From Pelagomonas calceolata (Eukaryota), in contig CAKKNE010000006.1 in assembly GCA_918797485.1 (NCBI GenBank), positions 3,162,001 to 3,226,000 of the forward strand: a stretch of DNA of 64,000 nt, read 5' to 3'. Position 1 is the stretch's first letter; every line of letters starts with the position of its first letter. Shown here one piece after another: positions 3,181-61,647 of this stretch. The translations under genes and the position numbers were made by a program. The notes below the pieces were generated by a model. That model had not been told where the DNA came from. It worked only from the letters and a program-made list of their open reading frames with translations, and made no database searches.

Positions 3181-4470
3181 ATGCCGACGCGCCGCCTCGT
3201 CGCGCTCGCCCTCGCGGCCGGCGCCTCCGCCGGCTGCGACGTGTGCAGCAAAGAGCTCTATGACGGCCGGTGCGGGCCCTTCGAGCGCGAGGCCCGGGGC
3301 AGGTGGGCCGACTGGACGACGCTGGCGCCGGACGTGAGTTGCCTCGAGGACGTGTGCTGCGCGCTGCACGAGGACGACTGCTGCGAGCCGGCCGCGGGCC
3401 CGATCGCCGGCCTCGTGATCGGCGCCGTCGTGCTGTTGGCGTTCGTCGGCGGCGCGTGCCTGCGGCTCTGCGGCCTCGCGGGAGGCAGGGACGCCGAAAG
3501 GTGGAGTTTACGCACGTCTGGCCACTGCTTCAGGAACGGGCCGAACCCGAGCCACGTCGGTTTAGTGGCCTTCGCGTGCGGCGTGGCGTACCTCGTGGCC
3601 CTCATGCCCCTCCGGCACTGGACGAGCTACAAACTCGTCGTGGAGGTGAACCTGGTCGGGCGTCTGGAAAGCCGCGCGAGGTTCGACCTGTGGCACGGGG
3701 CGGTGACGACGAAGAACGACTACCTCGGGGATTCCAAGGACGAGGACGCCATCCTGGCGGACCCCGAGGATTGCAACGACGGGGACCAATTTTGCAAGTC
3801 CCTCGTCGAGGCGAACAACGCCGCGCAGTCCTTGGTCATGGTGGCGCTTGTCCTGGCGTCGGTCGCGTGCCTCGCGATCGCGGGATGGAAATTCTGCTGC
3901 GTCGGCGTCGACGGAGAACCGAACGTCGCCGCCTGCGACAAGAACGCGAACGCATTCGCGGTCGCCTCCGCGCTGCTGGCGGTCAGCGGGGCCGTCGGCG
4001 TCGCGGGCGCGACCAACTACAAGTTTGCGATGAAGGACGCGTTCCTCGACCTCGCCGACGCATCGCGCGAAAGCGGGCCCGTCGGCATAGGCTCCGAACC
4101 CTGCAGAGCTGGCTGCGCCCTGTCCATCGTCGCGGGCGCGTTCGGTATCATCGTCGGCGTGCTCGGCGTGGTCCTGCACGTTTACGGTGTCGTCGTCGAG
4201 GCCAGGCCGGCCGGCGCCGAGAGTCCGGTGGGCCCGATCACCCTGGGCGGCGTGAAGATCGATCTAGCACAAGAGGACGTGTGCTCGCCGCGCCGCGTGG
4301 ACCTCGTGTACGCGCCGCTCGCGGCCTGGTACAACGCGACGGGGCGCGCCGCGCTGCGCGCCAAGCACGGCCCGCTCCCCGCGACCGCCGACGCTTTCTA
4401 CCAGTGGCCCACGCGCAACGCGGTCGTCATGGCGTTCCTCGACGACCAGGGCGTGCCGCCCGCCTTCTAG
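3181..4470 (+). CDS. Multi-pass membrane protein with signal peptide and Cys-rich ectodomain (claudin/tetraspan-like region)
   Basis: Signal peptide MPTRRLVALALAAGASA, Cys-rich segment, about 5 hydrophobic helices; GC3-rich codon usage. Confidence 0.7.
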   Translation: MPTRRLVALALAAGASAGCDVCSKELYDGRCGPFEREARGRWADWTTLAPDVSCLEDVCCALHEDDCCEPAAGPIAGLVIGAVVLLAFVGGACLRLCGLAGGRDAERWSLRTSGHCFRNGPNPSHVGLVAFACGVAYLVALMPLRHWTSYKLVVEVNLVGRLESRARFDLWHGAVTTKNDYLGDSKDEDAILADPEDCNDGDQFCKSLVEANNAAQSLVMVALVLASVACLAIAGWKFCCVGVDGEPNVAACDKNANAFAVASALLAVSGAVGVAGATNYKFAMKDAFLDLADASRESGPVGIGSEPCRAGCALSIVAGAFGIIVGVLGVVLHVYGVVVEARPAGAESPVGPITLGGVKIDLAQEDVCSPRRVDLVYAPLAAWYNATGRAALRAKHGPLPATADAFYQWPTRNAVVMAFLDDQGVPPAF

Positions 4471-19798: not shown

Positions 19799-20706
19799 AT
19801 GCAGCTCATCTCTACTCTCGCCCTCGCCGCCTCGGCCTCCGCGCTCGTCGCGCCGGTCGCGCCGCAGACGTCCAAGGTCGTCCGCGCCGGCGCCACGCTC
19901 GACGATCAGCTGAAGAAGATCCCGGGCGTCTCGCCGCTCAAGAACGCCCCGGCCGACTACGGCTTCGACCCGCTCGGCTTCGCCAAGGTCTCATACCCGC
20001 GCTTCGGCCTGCCCGACGACGAGCTGCTCCGCACGAACAACCTGCGCGACGCCGAGCTCCGCCATGGTCGCCTCGCGATGCTCGCCGCCGCGGCGTGGCC
20101 GATCCAGGAACTCGTTCACCCGTCGTTGGCCAAACTCGCGGGCGCCCCCGAGCTTTTGTCGGACGGCCGCTCGCCCTCCATCTTAAATGGTGGCCTCGTC
20201 GCGGGCCCGGTGCCGGCGTTCCTGCTCGCGACGGCTGCGGCGATCGGCTACCTCGACGTCCAGGCCGAAGCCAAGAAGGCCGAGTACCCGGCAGAAGATT
20301 GGATCCCTGGGTTCGGCGCCGTGTCTCTCAAGATGCCTTAGATATCACCAGCACGCCATCGACGCGGAGCCAAAATGATGTCCGCGCAGGTACTACGGCT
20401 TCGATCCCCTGAACATCGTCGGCGGCATGTCGCCGCTCGCGATCAAGAACATGCAGGCGCGCTTCGGAGTCCGAAACACACTCCACGCCGTCGACGCGCC
20501 AGCTCGACGCCTTCCGCACGCAGGCCAAGGAGATCAACAATGGAAGACTCGCTATGGTCGCCGTCGTCGCCTACGTCGTCCAGGAGGCCATGACGGGCGA
20601 GCCCGTGACCTCCGTGAGCGAGCAGTTCTTCACGCCCATCATCTACTACCCGTGGGTCCAGCACCTCCTCACGGACGCGTTCGGCATCGCGTCGTTCCGC
20701 TCCTAG
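19799..20706 (+). CDS. Light-harvesting chlorophyll-binding (LHC/FCP family) protein; exons 19799-20310, 20390-20456, 20524-20706
   Basis: Bipartite presequence (ASASAL), GFDPLG, AELRHGRLAMLA, second GFDPL and KEINNGRLAM after removing two introns. Confidence 0.93.
20311..20389 (+). other. GT-AG intron 1 of the LHC gene
   Basis: Removal gives WIPGYYGFDPL; contains acgccatcgacgcg motif. Confidence 0.85.
20457..20523 (+). other. GC-AG intron 2 of the LHC gene
   Basis: Removal gives NMQAKEINNGR; gcaggc repeated at both junctions; contains acgccgtcgacgcg motif. Confidence 0.85.
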
Positions 20707-24461: not shown

Positions 24462-24483
24462 GCTAGCGGAGTAAGACACTAGC
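24462..24483 (+). promoter_or_regulatory. Double-CTAG upstream motif
   Basis: gctagcggagtaagacactagc upstream of DPH3. Confidence 0.65.
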
Positions 24484-24735: not shown

Positions 24736-24951
24736 ATGCCAGGCATCTACGAAGACGTCCCCATCGGGGACATGAGCTACGACGCCGACGAGCAACTGTA
24801 CCAGTACCAGTGCCCCTGCGGCGACTTGTTCGAAATTACGCTCGAGGAGCTTTGGGACGGCGACGACATCGCCCACTGCCCGTCCTGCACGCTCAAAGTG
24901 AGGGTCATCTTCGACAAGGAGCAGCTGCCTCCCTTACCTCCCGCGGAATGA
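24736..24951 (+). CDS. DPH3: Diphthamide biosynthesis protein 3 (CSL zinc finger, KTI11)
   Basis: IYEDVPIGDM...YQCPCGDLFEI...AHCPSCTLKVRVIF. Confidence 0.93.
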   Translation: MPGIYEDVPIGDMSYDADEQLYQYQCPCGDLFEITLEELWDGDDIAHCPSCTLKVRVIFDKEQLPPLPPAE

Positions 24952-26252
24952 TTCACTCGATGCAGCGCGACCGCGAGCGGCGGCTCCGGAGGAAGCCGCG
25001 GCGGAAGCGCGGCCTCGTCGCGTGTCTGATCGCGCTGACCGGCGTCGCGTTACTCGGGAACTTACTGACGTCGCCTCATTTAGAAGAGCCGACGACGGAC
25101 GCCGCGCATAACCCGCCGGGCTACCGGCCACCCGTCTTGGATCCCGTGGAGGCGGACGCGCGGGCGGCCGCGGCCGCATTGAGTATAGTGGACGCCCTGC
25201 CGCCGGCGCCCAGGATCGCCTACGCCGTGACCGTCACGGAGGAGCCCAAGGCTTCCAGTGTCGGCTTTCTGGACGGCGCCGCGGTCCTCGCGCAGTCCGT
25301 GCGATCGGCGCATAAACGGTCGACGTACGGCGCGCCGGCCTTTGTTGCCTTCGTCTCGCCGCGGATCTCACAAAGAACGCGGGCCTCGCTGCGAGGTATT
25401 GGTTTTAGAAGCATCGAGAAGCAATTGCCCATCGTTCCTGACAAAATAGAGGGTTCATTTCTCAGGAAGCTCTGGACTGAGCCAAATGAGAAGTTCCCGG
25501 ACCCGACGATGAGGGGAGGCTGCTGCGGCGCCTGGGAACTCCTGAAATTATATGCCTGGACCCTGACTGAATATGAACGCGTGATCCACGTCGACATGGA
25601 CTGCCTCCTGCTCCACCCCATCGACGAATTACTGTCTATAGACGCGTCACTCGTCTACACGGCGGACTACAACATGATGAACGACAACCAGCGGAAGAAC
25701 CGGTTGACGCCGGCCGTGCAGGGCGGGTTCTTGGTCGTGCGACCCTCTCATCAGGTGTTTGAGGCCCTCGTGGCGTTGATGCAACGGGGCAAGTGGGGCG
25801 GCAAGTGTTCCGGGTGGGAATGCACGGGCGTGGGCCATTGGTGGGGCGGCGCGACGATCCAAGGGTTATTACCTTACTTCTACGATCGGCACGCCAAGAC
25901 TCTAACGATGGCGCGGGCCTCGGACCTCAAGGCCGTCGAGGTCGACCGGTGCGTCTACGACAACATGGGGGATAAAGCAGTGGTCAATCCCTTGCCGTAC
26001 GTCGGGTGCAGCGCCGCGCGGCAGACGCCTTTTGACGACGTGAAGTTCGCGCATTTTACGGTCTGTCAAAAGCCGTGGACCTGCAACCCGGCGCGCGACC
26101 CCGACGACGACAAGAAGATCTGCCTCGCGCTGCACGCGGCGTGGTTCGACATCCGCCGCGAATTCGAGGAGGAGCACGGCATGCCGTCGGAGAAGAAGGT
26201 CTGCCGGCGGGGCTACAAGAAGATGGCGTTTCCCGCGGGGTTCGGGGAGTAA
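24948..26252 (+). CDS. Glycosyltransferase family 8-like type II membrane protein
   Basis: Basic tail + TM (GLVACLIALTGVALLG), KLYAWTLTEYERVIHVDMD (DxD), QGGFLVVRPS, HFTVCQKPW; first in-frame ATG overlaps the DPH3 stop (second ATG at 24960). Confidence 0.88.
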   Translation: MIHSMQRDRERRLRRKPRRKRGLVACLIALTGVALLGNLLTSPHLEEPTTDAAHNPPGYRPPVLDPVEADARAAAAALSIVDALPPAPRIAYAVTVTEEPKASSVGFLDGAAVLAQSVRSAHKRSTYGAPAFVAFVSPRISQRTRASLRGIGFRSIEKQLPIVPDKIEGSFLRKLWTEPNEKFPDPTMRGGCCGAWELLKLYAWTLTEYERVIHVDMDCLLLHPIDELLSIDASLVYTADYNMMNDNQRKNRLTPAVQGGFLVVRPSHQVFEALVALMQRGKWGGKCSGWECTGVGHWWGGATIQGLLPYFYDRHAKTLTMARASDLKAVEVDRCVYDNMGDKAVVNPLPYVGCSAARQTPFDDVKFAHFTVCQKPWTCNPARDPDDDKKICLALHAAWFDIRREFEEEHGMPSEKKVCRRGYKKMAFPAGFGE

Positions 26253-40430: not shown

Positions 40431-40661
40431 GTTCACTAAGTCGATGTTACGGTGCTGATCGTAGCTAGTGGCGTGTACATACTAGCATTGAGCCCCCGGG
40501 GAGGCCACTGCTCTTGCACGCGCGTCACCTAGCTCGCATCAATAGCGGGCTCCAAAAAACGCACGCTGATATTTTCACAGCGCTGTGTGGTCGCGTTCTT
40601 GTCCAGCCACGACGCTACGCAGAGGAGTTCTCCAAAAGGCTCAAGCAGTCGAGAGCATAAT

Positions 40662-48090: not shown

Positions 48091-48711
48091 TTAGGTTATG
48101 AACGCGACCCCGGCGGCGCACTCGTCCCTGTGCCCCGCGAGCCAGTGCGCCTTGCGGCACGCGTCCCCGCAGTAGCGCGGCCCGCCGCAGCCGTCGCAGC
48201 GCTCTAACGGTTTGTCCTCTGGCCGCTGGCCGCAGCTGTCGCAGACGCGGCCGCGCTCGGCGCGCGCCGCGGTGGCCCTCCGAGCCCGCTCCTTCAGGGC
48301 CGCGAGCTCGGCCTTGCGCCAGGCGAGGTCGGCCTCCTTCCGCAAAATTTGCGAGCGCAGCTCCATCTCTTCCGCCCGATCCTCGACGAGCGCGACGACG
48401 CGGCCTCGTACCGCTTCGGGCAGGCGCGCGACGGCCAGCCGGATCTCCTTTACTTTTTCGGCGACGATGGCGCCACCGTAGCCCGCGTCCCGGAGCCGCT
48501 CGAGGGCCCGGAACTCGCTCGCCACACGCGCCACCGCCACGGCGGCGTCATCTGGCGGCGGGAGGGTCGCCGGACTATTTCTCCCGGAGCTCGATTGCGG
48601 CGGGAGGGTCGCCGGACTATTTCTCCCGGAGTTTGATTGCGGCGGCGGTACGGAGGGCGGTGGTGGAGGGGTATTTGCTGCCGGGGCGGCCCGGGCCGTC
48701 CAGTTGTTCAT
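48091..48711 (-). CDS. Protein with C-terminal MYND zinc finger
   Basis: CDSCG...[30 protein letters not shown] overlaps the NOP10 stop. Confidence 0.82.
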
Positions 48712-48905
48712 AGCGCATCGCGTTCTTTTTGCGTGGGCAGTAGCCCAAACCGCTTCTTGCACGCGAGGCGCTGCGCGCTGAACTTGTCGTCCGGCGAGAA
48801 GCGCGCGGGGTGCGCGCTGAGGGTGGGTTGCTCTTCCTCGCCGTGGGACTTTTTGAGGGTGTAGACGCGCTCGCCCTTCTCGTTGAGGTAGTACATGAGG
48901 TGCAT
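48708..48905 (-). CDS. NOP10: H/ACA snoRNP subunit NOP10
   Basis: [19 protein letters not shown]...[14 protein letters not shown]...[10 protein letters not shown]. Confidence 0.96.
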
Positions 48906-49314
48906 GGTTGTCGGGGGAGCTGCGGCGCTCGTCAGGCGAACCTGTGATGAGTTAGGCTGGCGCTGCGGCGAGTGTCGATTTTGAGTGGAGGGCAAGGAGC
49001 TAGCGGCTGTGAGGCACTAGGCAAGGCAAAACAGCAGGAGGGAGGGCGTTTCCAATTCCCGAGACGCGTCTCGTCCCCGCCGGAAGGATCGGCGCGCATT
49101 TGGATCCAAAATCAGCGGCTGTCACTTTACCAAAAGCCAAGTGCTTATCACTTCCTGTTGCTGCCGGTTGAAGCTGCGTGCCCGCCTAGCAGCCAGGAGC
49201 AGGCGCGGCGGAAAGCCGTAACGACGCGCGCTGCAGCGCGCTTGTGTGTAACCGTTCTCCGGATTCCCCGCTGCTCCTGATTTTCCCAATCTTAGTGACT
49301 AGCGCTGCTGCGCC

Positions 49315-50136
49315 ATGGCCGAGCACCTGCAGGTGGCGGATGCTGACACGGCAGCATTACAAGCGCGGCTCGACGCGCTGGAGAGCGAGACGCACTCGCT
49401 GCGCGAGGTCCTCACGGAGCGGCTCAAGCGCGACTCCTTGGACGAGGCCCTGCCGACGGGGCGCGGGCAGCGGCGGTCGCGCGACAAGCCGCGAGGTTCG
49501 AGAAGTTCCCGCGGCTCGTTTGAGCGAAGATCGCGGTCGCCGGAGCCGCCGTCGGGCGGCCGGTTCCGGTGGGTCCGCGGCGACGACGACGCCAAGAGTT
49601 TGGCGCGACTCGTGGTCGGCGCCGCGATGCCCGACGCCGTCGTCGGCTTCCCCGTGGACCTGCACGCGAAGTACGAGGCGAACGTGAATACGGCGCTGAA
49701 GGGCGTCGCGATCGCGGCGCGGCGCTGCCTCGAGGACCGCGACTTACATTTAGCCTGCGCGCCGCGGTTCCGGGACAACCGCAACGAGCTCACGGCGAGC
49801 GTCTACCCTCTTCTGGAACGACCTCCCGACCCGGACGCGCCCGACGTCGAGGTCCTGACCGTCGCGCGCGCGACGGACTACCGCGTCCTTGCGGGTGCGG
49901 TCGCGAAGCGCGCGCGCGACGGGCAAACTTCTCGGTTAAGAGCCATCGGCGCCGCCGCCGTGTTTACCGCTGCTAGAGCGGTCGCGACGGCGCGCGAGTA
50001 CCTGGCCGACGACGCGACGCGCTCGTCGGTGGCCTGCGTGCCGCGCTTCGCAACCGTACAGTTCGACGGCCGCGCGGAAGAGACGACGATCCTCGAGGTC
50101 GTCGTCTTCCGCGTCGCCGTCGACTCCGACGACTAG
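49315..50136 (+). CDS. Tandem SpoVS-like (Alba-fold) domain protein
   Basis: VLTVARATDYRVLAGAVA...LRAIGAAAVFTAARAVATAREYL...CVPRF, plus a degenerate N-terminal copy (NVNTALKGVAIA...CAPRF). Confidence 0.75.
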   Translation: MAEHLQVADADTAALQARLDALESETHSLREVLTERLKRDSLDEALPTGRGQRRSRDKPRGSRSSRGSFERRSRSPEPPSGGRFRWVRGDDDAKSLARLVVGAAMPDAVVGFPVDLHAKYEANVNTALKGVAIAARRCLEDRDLHLACAPRFRDNRNELTASVYPLLERPPDPDAPDVEVLTVARATDYRVLAGAVAKRARDGQTSRLRAIGAAAVFTAARAVATAREYLADDATRSSVACVPRFATVQFDGRAEETTILEVVVFRVAVDSDD

Positions 50137-53180: not shown

Positions 53181-54122
53181 AGGCGTAGATGCAAATCTGA
53201 AGATCTGCAGTCATTTACTTATCGCAGTACTCGATGATTTCAAGTTCTCGAAATAATTGCACCTGCGCGGACGTACCCTTCTGATTCGGAAGCTCGGCCG
53301 GTCGGATGCGACGAACGATGTCAGAGACGGCTCCTCGCACACCAAAAATCGCGTCGGAGTCAATGATTTCGTACTGAACTGCCGGCGCTGCTCCGCGAGC
53401 CGCGAGCTGGCCTGGAGTGAGCCCGAGTTTCCGGCGCGGCGCGAGCGGTACCTGGGCCTCTCAGGCGCAGCTGCGCCGTCCGGGCAGGTCGCCGAGGCTC
53501 GTCATAGAGTCAACTGGGCGTGTTGGTCTGGTCTGCAGCGGCTCCGGCCGTCTGCACCGCGCTGGCGCCGTGGATGGCCACCGCCCAGATCGTTCTGCGC
53601 TCTGCGATTTTTTTGATTCGCAAAGTGAAATTACGCCCCCCGACCGGGTCCGCGGCGCGCCCGCGCAGCAGGAGGGCTCGGGGGCCTTAGGGGGACGGGT
53701 CCTAGCGGGTTTCTACTTTCTGGGGACGCCTGATACCCGTCACAAGGCCGACGCCGGCGCGGACGGGCGGCCCGGCCTCTGCGCCCGGCGGGCGAGTCCG
53801 CGGCGCGGGCGCGGCGCGGGCGCGGCGCGGGAGGCCTCCTGAGACTTGGGAGAGAGATTTCTACGGAGTTACTAGTCGCTAGAGGCCCATTGCCCACCAG
53901 CTTCGGAATTCGACGTTCGGGTTTTTCGCCCTTTTGCCGGGTTCTGGCGAGCCCCATATCAATACCGAACGTTCTAGGACATCATGGGACGGCTCCTGGC
54001 GGGTTCCTACTTTCTGGGGACGCCTGACACCCGTCACGAGGCGGCCGCGGGCCCGAACGGTAGACGACGCTAAATGTACCTTTACCAAAGAAAGAAAGAG
54101 CACGCTTCTTAATATTCACAAG

Positions 54123-55145
54123 TCACCCGTAGATGTCGTCGTCGTCGTCGGCGCCGCCGCCGTCGCCGTCGAGGTGCGCCCAGGGATTCTCCGCGGGCGG
54201 CGGCGGCCGCGCGGGGTTCGGCCGCGGCGGCGCGACGCCGCCGCGGAGCACGTCGAACATGTCCGGTACGCCGCCTTGACCGCCCATGAGTTGGGCCATC
54301 AGCTGCGGGTCGAAGGGCATGGGCCCGGGCAGCGGCAGGTCCGGCACCGGTTGTGGTTGCGGCGCCGCCCAGGGGTTCGGCAGCGGCGCGTCCGGGTCCG
54401 CATTCACAGAAGGCGCACTCGCACCGCCGCTCGACACGGCCATGCCCTCGAAGCCCTCCATGAGCGGTTCCTGGACCTCGGAGTACATCCTCCTTAAGGC
54501 ATTAAACCCTTCTGGGTGGTTTTCTAATTGAGATAAAGCCAGATCCTGGTGGCGCATGGCTTCTCTAGCTCGTGCTGGATTCCTGGCGACCTCGACGGCC
54601 TCCCTGAGCAAGTTGGGATCCTGCAAGGCATGCCGCAGCTGCGGATTCGCGTCCATTGCCCTCCTGAGTTGGGGATTGGCGTTGACCATCTGTCTGAGTA
54701 AATTCGGGTCATCTAACAAACTTCTAGTGAACGGGCTATCGAGGATCCTCGCGGTGAGCTCGGGGTCGCTCATCAGACGTCTCTGTAACGATGCCGGGTC
54801 ACTTGGTAATTGCATGCCGTGCAAACCACCTGCTAATAGACCATTCGCGGCCAACTGCGGTTGTTGCGGAGGCGCTTGCGGCTGTCGCGGCGGCGCCCTC
54901 AGTAAGTGTATGGTACACTGGTCGGTGACGTCGTACTCCGTTAAGAGGTCACCATCTTGTAAGGCCCTACCTTTATAGATGAGGCGCTGCTCCGCCGCCG
55001 GCACGTCCGCCGGCGTCTCACATTTTTCTTTGAACTCGAGTACTGACGCGGCCCTCGACACTACGAGCTGGAAATGCTTGCCCGTCGACGTCTTCACGAC
55101 GAGGGTCATGTCGACGCCCGGGGTTGTGGCGGTCATCGTTGCCAT
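54123..55145 (-). CDS. Ubiquilin/DSK2-like protein (UBL + STI1 repeats) lacking the UBA domain
   Basis: UBL: EQRLIYKGRALQD...CTIHL; STI1: NPQLR, ALSQLENHPEGFNALRRMY, PLPNPW; ends DDDDIYG. Confidence 0.88.
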   Translation of the reverse strand: MATMTATTPGVDMTLVVKTSTGKHFQLVVSRAASVLEFKEKCETPADVPAAEQRLIYKGRALQDGDLLTEYDVTDQCTIHLLRAPPRQPQAPPQQPQLAANGLLAGGLHGMQLPSDPASLQRRLMSDPELTARILDSPFTRSLLDDPNLLRQMVNANPQLRRAMDANPQLRHALQDPNLLREAVEVARNPARAREAMRHQDLALSQLENHPEGFNALRRMYSEVQEPLMEGFEGMAVSSGGASAPSVNADPDAPLPNPWAAPQPQPVPDLPLPGPMPFDPQLMAQLMGGQGGVPDMFDVLRGGVAPPRPNPARPPPPAENPWAHLDGDGGGADDDDDIYG

Positions 55146-55394
55146 CGTCTTTACGTCTGCGGCGACGGCGTGGGGTGCTTTTTGTTTGGAGGTCTCTGAG
55201 AGCTGATGGGTTTCAGAGAGACCGAGGGCCGTTGCGCGGCTCGCGGTCGACACGAGGCGCTGGCGGGTTCGCCCAGGCAAGCGGGAGAGAGCTCGCCTGA
55301 ACCGGTAGCGCCGGCGTTGGCTGCGTTTTTGGGCAGGAGCTGGAGCCCAGATTATTTTCTAGTGTGTTACTTCTGTTAGCTAAGTTTACCCTCA

Positions 55395-56261
55395 TTACGC
55401 CGTCGGAGACGACGGAGCGCGCCCGAGAGACCCTCCACCGAAATCGCGCCATCGCGAGGAGCGCCTCCGGAAAATCCGACACACAACAAATGCGGCGACG
55501 CCCACCGCGGCGCCCGTCAGATGTGCGCCGTGGCCGATATTATCCTGAGCGTCGATGAGGCGCCACTCGTGCACGAAATAGAAGCACGAACTCACGACGT
55601 GCAGCACCGCGTTGGCGTCGCACCGCCTTCCGAGAAGCAGCGCCTCGGCGACGACGCAGGTGTCGATGGCCACGAACGCTGACACTCCGGCGGAGGCGCC
55701 TATGGAGCGAATATTTTCGTTCACTTTTTTCGCCACGGCGTGCACGGCCGTCCTCCGCGCCTCGTCGAACGCCTTGGAGATTTTGTCGCCCAGGCGCTCA
55801 CCCACCACCTCCGAGGCACCCGAGAGGTTGAAGACCCGTCGGACCCGCTCGCCGATGCCCCACCGCTCGACGATGCGCTCGAGGCGCTGCGTGCCAAAGT
55901 CGAAGGGGTCCAGGGCCGCCGCGATGCCCGCGGCGACGTACGTCACCATCGCTCCGTTGACGCCTAAGGTGTCCGTTGCCGCCGGCCCGGCGACGAGGAT
56001 CGACTGCAGGTTGGACAGCGCGTGCGCCTGGTTCCCGTGCAAGAGCATGTAACTCGCCGTCGTCCACCAGCGGCCCTCGCGCAACGCCTGCCGGCTGAAC
56101 GTGAAGTGCTTTTCCAGCGTATTCATAGAGAGCGGCAGCGCTATTGACAAACGCGGCTCCCTTCCAGAGGCAGCTGCGAGTGTCGGTATTAGCGCGTGCA
56201 GCGCCAATAAAGGCGAGAAGTCGCCGGCAAACGCCACGACGCGTTCGAACGAGCGGTTCAT
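55395..56261 (-). CDS. Rhomboid-family intramembrane serine protease
   Basis: GRWWT, HGNQAHALSN, GASAG (catalytic Ser), HGAHLTGAAVG (catalytic His); ATG overlaps the LYR gene stop. Confidence 0.87.
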   Translation of the reverse strand: MNRSFERVVAFAGDFSPLLALHALIPTLAAASGREPRLSIALPLSMNTLEKHFTFSRQALREGRWWTTASYMLLHGNQAHALSNLQSILVAGPAATDTLGVNGAMVTYVAAGIAAALDPFDFGTQRLERIVERWGIGERVRRVFNLSGASEVVGERLGDKISKAFDEARRTAVHAVAKKVNENIRSIGASAGVSAFVAIDTCVVAEALLLGRRCDANAVLHVVSSCFYFVHEWRLIDAQDNIGHGAHLTGAAVGVAAFVVCRIFRRRSSRWRDFGGGSLGRAPSSPTA

Positions 56262-56488
56262 CACTTCTTGGACTTGTTCAGGCTCTTCATCACGAGGTAG
56301 TTCGACAGCGCGCGGACCGCGTCCGCTTTCAGCTTCGAGATCTCGGCCGCGTCCGTCACGCCAATATGTTTGCGGAAGCCGTCCTTGACGACTTGCTTGA
56401 GCGCTCGGCCCTTCGCCGAGTCGCCTCCAATATGATGCGCCGTGCGCAGGCAGTCGCGGAAGAGTTGTAGTGTTGTGCGCTCGAGCAT
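56261..56488 (-). CDS. LYR-motif (Complex1_LYR) small mitochondrial protein
   Basis: TLQLFRDCLR...VKDGFRKH...DAVRALSNY; 75 aa. Confidence 0.87.
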   Translation of the reverse strand: MLERTTLQLFRDCLRTAHHIGGDSAKGRALKQVVKDGFRKHIGVTDAAEISKLKADAVRALSNYLVMKSLNKSKK

Positions 56489-56859
56489 CGGCCGCTGCTG
56501 GGCCTGCACCGCGTCTAGACTACGAACAAATGGCAGCAAAGCTTTGCTCGACAGCGTGGCTGCTGGAGAGTAACTCCAAGGCCTTCGAAGCCTGCCGCAC
56601 CACGCGTTTAGCAGCGTTGGCAACTTGCGAGAGCTTCCTAGTGTGTCTAACCATTAGCTAATCACAGGCTCGGCTTTGTTGCGGCTGCTCAGGCACGCGC
56701 GAGTCGCGCAGGACTCGTTCGGGCGATCTCGGTACTCGCCACAGCGCCTGCTCACGCGCGCGGCTCATAACTGTCGCCAGATTTGGCGTACAGGTGCGGT
56801 GCTCTCTGAGAGCACTGTTCAGCAGCCTCAAAATCCGTGCGCGCGGCCTCGCGACAGCC

Positions 56860-57716
56860 ATGGCCGCCATGGCTGGCGGTAGCACTAAGCGCGCTATCGT
56901 CGAGATCATCAGTGATGTTGTGTGACCCTTCTGCTGGGTCGGCAAGCGCAACCTCGAGACTGCGCTCCGATCCACGGGCGTCCAGGCGCGCGTCCACTGG
57001 AAGGCCTTCCAGCTGAACCCCGGCGCCTCGGACACGCCCTCCAATAAACTCGAGATGTACATGTCCAAGTTCGGTTTCGAAGCGGTGTCCGTGATCGGTC
57101 GTCGAGAGCACTGCTGGCCCCCGGCACGCCATCGCGGCGATGGCGGGCGAGAGCACCCATCGCTACGCAGGCATGGGCCGCGACCAGGTGCTGCGCATGA
57201 CGGCGGGCATGCGCCAGAACTTTGCGAATGTGGGCCTCCCCTACGCGTTCACGGATCAAGGTCTTGTGGCGAACACGATGGACGCGCACCGCGTGCTCGC
57301 GTGGTGTGGTTCGCCGGAAGCGCAGGACAAGGCCGTCCGTAGCTCGGTGTCCTGCGAATTGGACGTCGAGAATGCGGCCGCGACGATGGCGTGGAGGTCA
57401 CCAAATTCTCCGCAATCGTTCTCAGGATAACCAAACGCAGGTCGAGGTCATATTCAACGGGTACTTCGCCGAGGAGCGCGCCCCGAACGACCGCGACCTG
57501 CTCATTGAGGCGTGCGTCGCCGCGGGCAAGTCCGAAGCGGATGCAAGAGCTTTCTTGGACGACAAGTCGGCCATGCGCGACCAGGTCCAGCGGGAATTAA
57601 GTGAAGCGCGGGGCGTCCGCGGCGTGCCGCACTTCGTCATCCGCCAGCCGGGGCGCGACCCCGTGCAGATCAGCGGCGCCCAGCCGCCGGAGATCTTCGA
57701 GCGCGCTCTGCAGTGA
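56860..57716 (+). CDS. DsbA/FrnE-family thioredoxin-fold selenoprotein; exons 56860-57073, 57171-57334, 57441-57716; Sec at TGA 56923-56925
   Basis: EIISDVV-TGA-PFCWVGKR aligns to the family CPxC site; FQLNP, NTMDAHR, VRGVPHF, ISGAQP; two GT-AG introns keep frame (218 codons). Confidence 0.9.
57074..57170 (+). other. GT-AG intron 1 of the DsbA gene
   Basis: Removal gives SKFGMGRDQV; contains acgccatcgcggcg motif. Confidence 0.8.
57335..57440 (+). other. GT-AG intron 2 of the DsbA gene
   Basis: Removal gives QDKAVEVIFNGYF; contains the intron motif in antisense (cgcgacgatggcgt). Confidence 0.8.
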
Positions 57717-57726
57717 AGCGCTACAT

Positions 57727-57788
57727 CGGTGCTGTGTATGACGGGCCACTACTACCCGTGGTGATGGCCCCGACAAGAAACGGCGCCG
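57727..57788 (+). promoter_or_regulatory. SECIS-like element in the 3'UTR of the DsbA selenoprotein gene
   Basis: Helix I cggtgctgt/acggcgccg (9 bp incl. G-U), ATGA at 57738-57741 with GA at 57772-57773, helix II gggcca-ctac / gtgg-tggccc. Confidence 0.8.
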
Positions 57789-57861
57789 CCGGCGCGTGGA
57801 TATAATTGTGTCTTGCTTTAGAGCGGCGCGACGACGGGGTCGGTGTCACAACATCACAAAC

Positions 57862-58977
57862 TTACGGAGGCTTGGGGGCGTTCGGCGGCGGCGGCGGCGG
57901 GGGACTGTCAGGACCACTAGCGGCGGCTCGCACCTCTCTCTCAACATCAACTAACGCCGTCATCGTCCGCCACCACAGCTCCCTTTGTTCTTCGTCGTCA
58001 AAACAAAGGTCGAGGGACCGGTCCTGCGTGACCAGTGAGAGATATTTGCCCTCATCTTTAACTTTTCCCGTCCTCCTTAAAACGTCGGTGTCCCTACCAC
58101 GAGAAATGCGTATTACCGAAGCCAGCTCGACGCCTTGTATTGAGGTACGTTTGCCCTTCCAGGTCAGGTACATGTACAGATACATGTCTCCTTGCACCAG
58201 TGATAGCTGGAAGGTTTTTTTGGAGGGCCGGCCCGATCTAAAAGGGTGCTTCGTCACACTGACACCGGTAGTTGTTAAAGCCTCAAACAATGAATACTCC
58301 TTCTCCGCGAGCGTCGCTCGTATGGTATACATGGTCGCCGCCATCGCGGTGTACGTCGTCCCGGGCGAACATAGGATCCTTTCGGCCGCCTTCCGCCGGT
58401 CCTCATTTTCGGTATCTTGTACAATGTGATGATGTTTATAGTCGGGCAGCACGGCCTCGCGCCACCAGAAGGGACCCCTTAGTCTGTATAACTCATCAGC
58501 AAAGGTGTGGTGGTACCAGGCCTGCAAGTCTTCCCTCGCATTGGCCCTGGCATGGAGGGTCCACTGCTCCTTGTCCATGGCTTGCCGCTCCCGATTCGCG
58601 TCTCGCACATATGAAACCCACCGGTCTCTCGCTGTCGTTAATCTGGACATGTTCCGTCGTCTCACGAGATTCTGCACTTTGTAACTCCCGTGCTCCACTC
58701 TTCTATCGCGAGCAAAGACGCGCAGGCGTTCTCGTACCGCGTCGACCTCGCGCTCCAGCGCTCTTATGTGAGCCACGGGGTCCAGCTCCTCGTTGAGGTG
58801 CGCGAGGCCATCCTTTTGACTTTGAGGGTTCGCGGCGGCGGCGTTGAGCTCGTTCTCATCGAGGGGCGATGGCGGCGCCGGCGGGGCCGCGTCGCTGGTT
58901 TGCTTCTTTGCCGAGCTTGGGGGCTTCTTTTCGGACGCCGTCGCCATCGGTGCGTCGTTTTTGGACGGCTTTGCCAT
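57862..58977 (-). CDS. Coiled-coil + C-terminal PH-domain protein
   Basis: GVSVTKH...LTW...IRISRG...YLSLVTQDRSLDLCFDDEEQRELW (PLC-type PH pattern). Confidence 0.78.
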   Translation of the reverse strand: MAKPSKNDAPMATASEKKPPSSAKKQTSDAAPPAPPSPLDENELNAAAANPQSQKDGLAHLNEELDPVAHIRALEREVDAVRERLRVFARDRRVEHGSYKVQNLVRRRNMSRLTTARDRWVSYVRDANRERQAMDKEQWTLHARANAREDLQAWYHHTFADELYRLRGPFWWREAVLPDYKHHHIVQDTENEDRRKAAERILCSPGTTYTAMAATMYTIRATLAEKEYSLFEALTTTGVSVTKHPFRSGRPSKKTFQLSLVQGDMYLYMYLTWKGKRTSIQGVELASVIRISRGRDTDVLRRTGKVKDEGKYLSLVTQDRSLDLCFDDEEQRELWWRTMTALVDVEREVRAAASGPDSPPPPPPPNAPKPP

Positions 58978-61380: not shown

Positions 61381-61647
61381 GTTCGTGTTGTTGTTGTATC
61401 CTGTCGCGGCGAGGGCGTCGGCGACAGGCTCAGGCTCAGGCTAGTTACGTCGCAGGGTTCCCCTCCCCTCCCGCTCCCCCCGGGCCCACCCGTCTGGCTG
61501 GACTAGGGAGTCGATGTTACGGTGCTAGTACTAGTGGGCGGAGCCCCTGGGGGGCTAGACTAGGACGGATTGGCTGAGGCTGAGGCTAGTTACGTCGCAG
61601 GGTTCCCCGTACCCCGATTGGGCCCTAGTGACTTACAGCAGCTAGCA

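Follow-up and report, generated by a model that had tools for sequence, protein, structure and literature searches.

A candidate bicistronic nuclear mRNA was found in the window, the whole 64-kb stretch of Pelagomonas calceolata DNA analysed here. Two minus-strand genes, specifying a small LYR-motif protein and a rhomboid protease, overlap stop to start and are covered by continuous RNA, which makes the pair a real, RNA-supported candidate in a lineage for which no report of such mRNAs was found. Taken as a whole, the best explanation, towards which we lean slightly, is that a single mRNA carries both genes and that the rhomboid is made by ribosomes scanning past a weak LYR start codon. The minus strand at 56266–56256 reads AAG TGA TG AAC, with base 56261 common to the LYR stop (56263–56261) and the rhomboid ATG (56261–56259); on re-reading, these letters and coordinates of the TGATG overlap proved identical to those in the preliminary description of the locus. 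The features are listed in Table 1. The window is gene-dense, with a GC fraction of 0.59–0.74 per 2 kb, and the available text of the Pelagomonas genome preprint (10.1101/2021.10.25.465678) gives 63% GC and 11% intergenic DNA. Spliced GT-AG introns are visible in the window's reads, most matches of a light-harvesting protein encoded at 19799 are antenna proteins of the chlorophyll a/c type, and near-identical relatives are common in marine metagenomes.

Table 1. Features of the LYR/rhomboid locus and of two further overlapping pairs in the window (last two rows, recognised from sequence).
Feature	Position	Strand	Remarks
Core-promoter-like motif, likely bidirectional	56638–56658	−	In the 41-nt gap between the LYR/rhomboid transcript and the divergent DsbA-like transcript; putative promoter
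Transcription unit with both ORFs, ~1.25 kb, intronless	55379–56627	−	X1 contig and read depth; ends approximate
5′ leader, ~110–140 nt, ATG-free	56489–56627	−	Covered by reads; first ATG past the motif is the LYR start (+149)
ORF1, LYR-motif protein, 75 aa	56261–56488	−	Pfam PF05347; start context ccgATGC
Met67, sole internal ATG of ORF1, in frame	56288–56290	−	Context gtgATGA
TGATG stop-start overlap	56259–56263	−	ORF2 in −1 frame relative to ORF1; same in L001–L004
ORF2, rhomboid protease, 288 aa, predicted active	55395–56261	−	Pfam PF01694; G188-x-S190, H247
Second motif copy, likely promoter of separate ubiquilin transcript	55359–55380	−	14 nt past the rhomboid stop
DPH3-like CSL zinc finger (71 aa, T at −3) and 434-aa glycosyltransferase-8-like ORF, ATGA overlap	24736–26252	+	Motif at 24462–24482
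NOP10 (65 aa, A at −3) and 206-aa MYND-finger ORF, ATGA overlap	48091–48905	−	Motif at 48999–49020, between NOP10 and a divergent gene

Raw RNA reads came from a single sample, sequenced in four stranded poly(A) runs (X21–X24; 6–12% of each run was read; runs X11–X20, with small shares, were left aside), with depth in 51-nt bins for X21, X23 and X24 and only in 127-nt bins for X22; contigs came from run X1, another sample, the RNA status of which is presumed. Minus-strand reads are unbroken from ~56626 to ~55400 in all four runs. The lowest depth at the junction is 15.3 (X21), 7.0 (X23) and 6.7 (X24) in 51-nt bins and 9.8 in the 127-nt bins of X22; depth is 0–0.4 in the gap to the divergent DsbA-like gene (bin 56627–56677), where the reads switch strand, and 1.7–3.5 in the gap to ubiquilin (bin 55352–55402). 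An X1 contig of 1249 nt sits on 55379–56627 without any letter difference, and its neighbours are separate contigs, that of ubiquilin ending at 55339 and that of the DsbA-like gene beginning at 56669 (gap 56628–56668). Since DNA would not break at these two intergenic gaps, the X1 contig counts as RNA-like. Short reads and one contig across two genes indicate continuity, which is distinct from single-molecule proof. The RNA starts at ~56600–56627, beside the motif; poly(A) tails were seen at no gene in the reads, the 3′ ends of the unit are approximate, and the rhomboid 3′ UTR is only ~16 nt. The preliminary description had raised the possibility that the rhomboid has its own transcription start, and the reads speak against it: clusters of molecule starts inside LYR are absent from all four runs (the ubiquilin start has them in all four), and no motif copy precedes the rhomboid, the leader and LYR coding sequence holding just two half-sites with two mismatches each. 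No splice joints, other letters or loose ends were found in 55250–56750 among three raw runs and one contig set, which rules out a fusion of the ORFs by splicing or editing and also a spliced-leader operon. The bicistronic locus proposed in the preliminary description is thus likely, being backed by the stranded reads, by a contig whose ends match, by conservation and by a promoter-like motif that precedes LYR but not the rhomboid, and a bicistronic mRNA is very probably the main form of LYR and rhomboid RNA.

The LYR ORF (228 nt) specifies a 75-aa protein that matches Complex1_LYR (PF05347) with E = 3.5e-11 and 43.3 bits, against a curated cut-off of 24.8, and the best PDB matches of its profile are LYRM4 (E = 2.5e-4). 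A metagenome search with the LYR alignment gave 118 confirmed matches, and a comparison of at least 80 of their loci showed the pair to be conserved among close relatives. LYR is at least 85% identical in seven loci, one of which (L009) ends inside LYR, and the rhomboid comes next in all six others, so that the pair is not unlinked in close relatives, another outcome that the preliminary description had envisaged. The junction is TGATG in L001–L004; L005 and L006, apparently a single sequence type, have TAA-atc-ATG there, in frame and with a 3-nt gap. The rhomboid is next to LYR in none of 73 more distant loci, and in 12 of these 73 another ORF begins 0–91 nt past the LYR stop, by a rule that is blind to introns and with L028 left out for its broken LYR frame. 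The partners scanned in seven of the 12 comprise one methyltransferase-like, three C2H2 zinc-finger and one EngA GTPase protein and two without a family; in L010, LYR is followed by a convergent gene. Further bicistron candidates, recognised from sequence as LYR homologues with an unrelated ORF 0–91 nt on, are L007 (1229–1269), L015–L020, L025–L027, L062 and L065.

Both proteins are likely to be made, the rhomboid from the overlapping AUG, because purifying selection acts on LYR, on rhomboid codons 1–46 and on the rest of the rhomboid. Pooled dN/dS values, from comparisons of the window with five loci in which the pairs are not independent, are 0.075 for LYR, 0.12 for rhomboid codons 1–46 and 0.22 for the remainder. 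The products are likely to be two separate proteins rather than a fusion: no fused protein was found, and the relative frame, −1 in one sequence type but 0 in the second, speaks against a joining of the ORFs by read-through or frameshift. A rhomboid Pfam domain is absent from seven longer LYR-containing matches, a weak negative in which six of the seven sequences were read. One apparent fusion, P0090, continues past LYR for a few rhomboid residues before it leaves the frame, and is read as a sequence error in a single contig.

Translation of the second gene would proceed as follows. One promoter at 56638–56658 would give a capped mRNA of ~1.25 kb; part of the 43S complexes would initiate at the LYR AUG, which has C at −3 and +4, and others would scan past it and past the in-frame Met67 AUG to the rhomboid AUG, which has G at −3, to yield two separate proteins, the protease being the scarcer. 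A purine stands at −3 in 25 of 30 other ORFs of the window, and G in all three of its ORF2 starts; the C at −3 of the LYR start is kept in 7/7 close loci, including L005 and L006, where the leader is unrelated. This weak but conserved start context favours leaky scanning, as it is the signature shown by mutation in green algae (PMC11892635, available text). AUGs ahead of ORF2 number none in the leader and one in LYR, versus 1.55 expected, and internal ATGs are not depleted across the three ORF1s of the window (4 versus 4.4 expected, P = 0.56). Three observations count against scanning: Met67 shares the −3/+4 context of the rhomboid start and should divert scanning ribosomes, the start of NOP10, itself a candidate ORF1, has A at −3, and stop and start are never more than 4 nt apart in L005, L006 or the three pairs of the window, a closeness that scanning does not need. 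Given a bicistron, leaky scanning is nevertheless probably the main route to ORF2.

That closeness is the main attraction of termination-re-initiation on the same bicistronic mRNA, a lesser but appreciable possibility by which ribosomes ending at the TGA would restart on the overlapping AUG and so couple the two proteins, either after the whole LYR ORF or after a nine-codon mini-ORF that begins at Met67 and ends at the shared TGA. The stop-start distance is −1 (window and L001–L004) or +3 (L005/L006) in 6/6 close loci, within the 20 nt of TURBS-type re-initiation, and −4 at the DPH3 and NOP10 pairs; green-algal median spacers, at 40 and 183 nt, are far wider (PMC11892635), and viral re-initiation sites are marked by such overlaps (PMC10275272), as far as the available text of each goes. 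Met67 is invariant in 12/12 rows of alignment A3, and dS drops around the junction from 0.49–0.70 to 0.24 (final 15 codons of LYR) and 0.33 (first 15 of the rhomboid), values that come from few sites. On the other side, the TURBS-like motif UGGGA is missing from the LYR coding sequence, no Rfam match at E ≤ 1 was returned for 54000–58500, and a weak ORF1 start would be costly for such a mechanism. Local folding energy has no clear feature at the junction. Gaps reach 0–91 nt at the more distant LYR loci, and tight spacing can arise from genome compaction alone, the rhomboid 3′ UTR being so short.

It is improbable that the continuous coverage arises from two overlapping transcripts, an LYR mRNA ending near or in the rhomboid coding sequence and a rhomboid mRNA starting inside the LYR gene, merged by short reads and contigs. 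Such a pair of transcripts would account for a dip in depth at 56168–56269 to 0.36–0.45 of the LYR level, with a sharp step at ~56270, in all three runs with fine bins, for rhomboid/LYR depth ratios that differ from run to run (0.60, 1.47, 0.87 and 0.71), and for five molecule 5′ ends clustered at 56157, within the rhomboid coding sequence, in X23 alone among the four runs. Past the dip, depth recovers fully in X23 and X24 and stays at ~0.62–0.64 of LYR over the X21 rhomboid. Ubiquilin has a similar, milder 5′ bump and dip (0.55–0.70), given which part of the junction dip can be explained as library bias; the dip also fits the presence of some LYR-only mRNA. A rhomboid mRNA bearing Met1, however, must start above 56261, and should produce a deeper LYR 3′ half and an end cluster; no such cluster is listed in any of the four runs. 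A start at 56157, which has no motif copy nearby, would drop codons 1–46, which are under purifying selection, and would require initiation at M47. The preliminary description had also considered a downstream ATG as the rhomboid start, and initiation at M47 is ruled out by this selection together with the loss of M47, which is replaced in 9/14 aligned homologues covering that position. Of the 15 homologues aligned (from 83 matches), 14 retain Met1 or a start two to four residues before it, and the fifteenth is a fragment.

ORF2 matches the Rhomboid family (PF01694) with E = 2e-12 over a protein of 288 aa, above the curated cut-off, and the family profile matches GlpG (E = 2.4e-5). The GxS and H dyad motifs and the HxxxN motif are present, and H80, N84, G188, S190, H244, H247, G250 and G254 are invariant in 36/36 aligned rows; S190 and H247 are taken by us, from the GlpG motifs, to be the catalytic dyad, and the protease is predicted to be active. 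Other searches added little: the AlphaFold model had a mean pLDDT of 43 and was unusable, a PDB profile search with a shallow alignment matched no rhomboid, and NCBIfam returned only rhombosortase, below cut-off. Members of the PARL/Pcp1 subfamily have an N-terminal mitochondrial presequence and an extra helix. The ORF2 protein shares with them the active-site motifs and a GRWW-type loop motif, but it lacks the presequence and the extra helix, and, together with its nearest relatives, it has an insertion of ~60 residues before the catalytic serine that sets it apart from PARL/Pcp1. Its first hydrophobic segment spans residues 8–33, its first 30 residues include two basic and two acidic ones, and a presequence-like extension is absent here as in the nearest relatives. 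A quick tree of 123 rows (from 146 new matches and three others after a length filter, the search for the best tree being unfinished) places it in a clade of support 99 in which 10/10 rows have a short N-terminus; the rows of this tree include no named PARL. More distant matches include proteins with long basic N-terminal extensions, PARL-like by eye. The architecture does not bear out the PARL-type label of the preliminary description, which was that reader's inference.

The same description proposed a functionally coherent, operon-like mitochondrial pair, which is not borne out by a rhomboid without presequence and by distant LYR genes with differing partners. A selected mitochondrial module of an LYR assembly factor and a PARL-like protease, possibly fused so that LYR supplies the import signal, is very improbable: LYR proteins are mitochondrial accessory factors (PMC7896298, available text), LYRM4 is the best PDB match and the PARL-like distant matches point the same way, but presequences are absent from the rhomboid and its nearest relatives, the LYR partner changes in other lineages, the frame varies, and the longer LYR-containing matches (the weak negative above) have no rhomboid domain. 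The pairing is more likely that of a small housekeeping ORF whose promoter is shared by a neighbour in a very compact genome.

The motif variant reported upstream of LYR in the preliminary description is present at 56638–56657. It belongs to a CTAG-bounded motif of ~22 nt with 14 copies in the window versus 0.16 expected (100 shuffles), a pattern fitted to these same copies; the excess in the window is real. Copies lie mostly upstream of genes, single genes included, and both local ones fill ~40-nt gaps between transcripts. Ubiquilin 5′ ends cluster at 55331, 55327 and 55315, 28–44 nt past the second copy, with a step up in depth in 4/4 runs, and at the three starts seen the motif is 11–44 nt from the RNA 5′ ends. 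It is kept in L001–L004 while the leader diverges, and was not found in L005/L006 with the window-derived pattern. A role as branch point and splice acceptor or as spliced-leader site is ruled out, as the motif is outside the RNA and no joints or loose ends occur. The motif probably acts as a general core promoter, shared at this locus by two divergent genes, and offers a candidate core promoter for this algal group. In L002, a short CTAG-rich element (~4095–4150) is inserted right after the rhomboid stop with its flank duplicated; it resembles window 61503–61558 and 40455–40470 and is possibly a small mobile repeat.

Among 36 hand-picked ORFs in the window, which form 12 same-strand neighbour pairs, stops overlap starts in three pairs (−4, −4 and −1), and the other nine are spaced by 142–1889 nt. 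The first genes of the three overlaps are the shortest complete genes of the list (65, 71 and 75 aa). Finding three overlaps among 36 ORFs in 64 kb suggests that the genome holds many more. That there are hundreds of bicistronic nuclear genes, each with a tiny housekeeping ORF (LYR, DPH3, NOP10) set stop to start with an unrelated partner and coupled in bacterial style with no viral TURBS, is an unlikely extension; if true, an abundant ocean alga would have a eukaryotic stop-start system of its own.

In green algae, the existence of exclusively polycistronic nuclear mRNAs is established; LYR proteins are frequent among the cistrons, bicistronic transcripts being reported for five LYR subfamilies (PMC7896298, Gallaher 2021), and a short ORF1 with a weak start context was shown by mutation to allow ORF2 to be made by leaky scanning (PMC11892635, Duenas 2025). 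As described in the available text of these two papers, the green-algal loci resemble the present one in their short ORF1, longer ORF2, single promoter, weak ORF1 start and collinearity in relatives, and differ from it in their median spacers of 40–183 nt, as opposed to a stop-start overlap, and in lineage, the present one being of the chlorophyll-c type. The words 'rhomboid', 'diatom' and 'stramenopile' do not occur in the two main texts, nor 'rhomboid', 'NOP10' and 'DPH3' in seven Duenas supplements, and the Gallaher supplements may list related pairs. 'Cistronic' does not occur in the available text of the Pelagomonas preprint (10.1101/2021.10.25.465678), and no report of bicistronic or polycistronic nuclear mRNAs in pelagophytes or other stramenopiles was found in literature listings, in which subscription journals are mostly uncovered. 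The human MIEF1 mRNA, a candidate bicistronic nuclear mRNA, likewise has an LYR microprotein (PF05347) as its upstream ORF (PMC4383229, available text). Its partner, MiD51, is different, and orthology of the two LYR ORFs is without support from the PDB matches of the LYR profile, the MIEF1 upstream-ORF chain being absent from the 11 at E ≤ 1. Calicivirus and influenza B use termination-re-initiation with TURBS, at sites where, as here, the stop overlaps an out-of-frame start (PMC10275272, available text), but the present mRNA is cellular and has no TURBS-like motif in the LYR coding sequence. The pair would extend nuclear bicistronic mRNAs, with RNA support, from green algae to a chlorophyll-c lineage. 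That LYR is found as ORF1 with differing partners in green algae, in humans and in this alga points to a property of the small gene and not of the pair. Gene finders limited to one ORF per transcript would likely miss ORF1, and the overlap offers a clean test of leaky scanning versus re-initiation in a cellular mRNA.

Three other genes of the window deserve brief mention. The divergent DsbA/FrnE-like gene (56860–57716, plus strand) has two spliced introns (57074–57170 and 57335–57440) and an in-frame TGA where the Cys of a DVVxPFC motif would stand, and its predicted product is likely a selenoprotein (UxxC); an Rfam scan of 54000–58500 returned no SECIS element. Read depth over ubiquilin drops from 21–58 to 1–7 at ~54254, ~130 nt before the predicted stop (54123–54260), which may reflect early poly(A) addition, dropout or filtering; reads at 54092–54202 stem from another similar place. 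Elsewhere in the window, a 273-aa ORF (49315–50136, plus strand) contains two SpoVS-like domains (PF04232, E = 9.5e-20), a bacterial family name in an algal nucleus.
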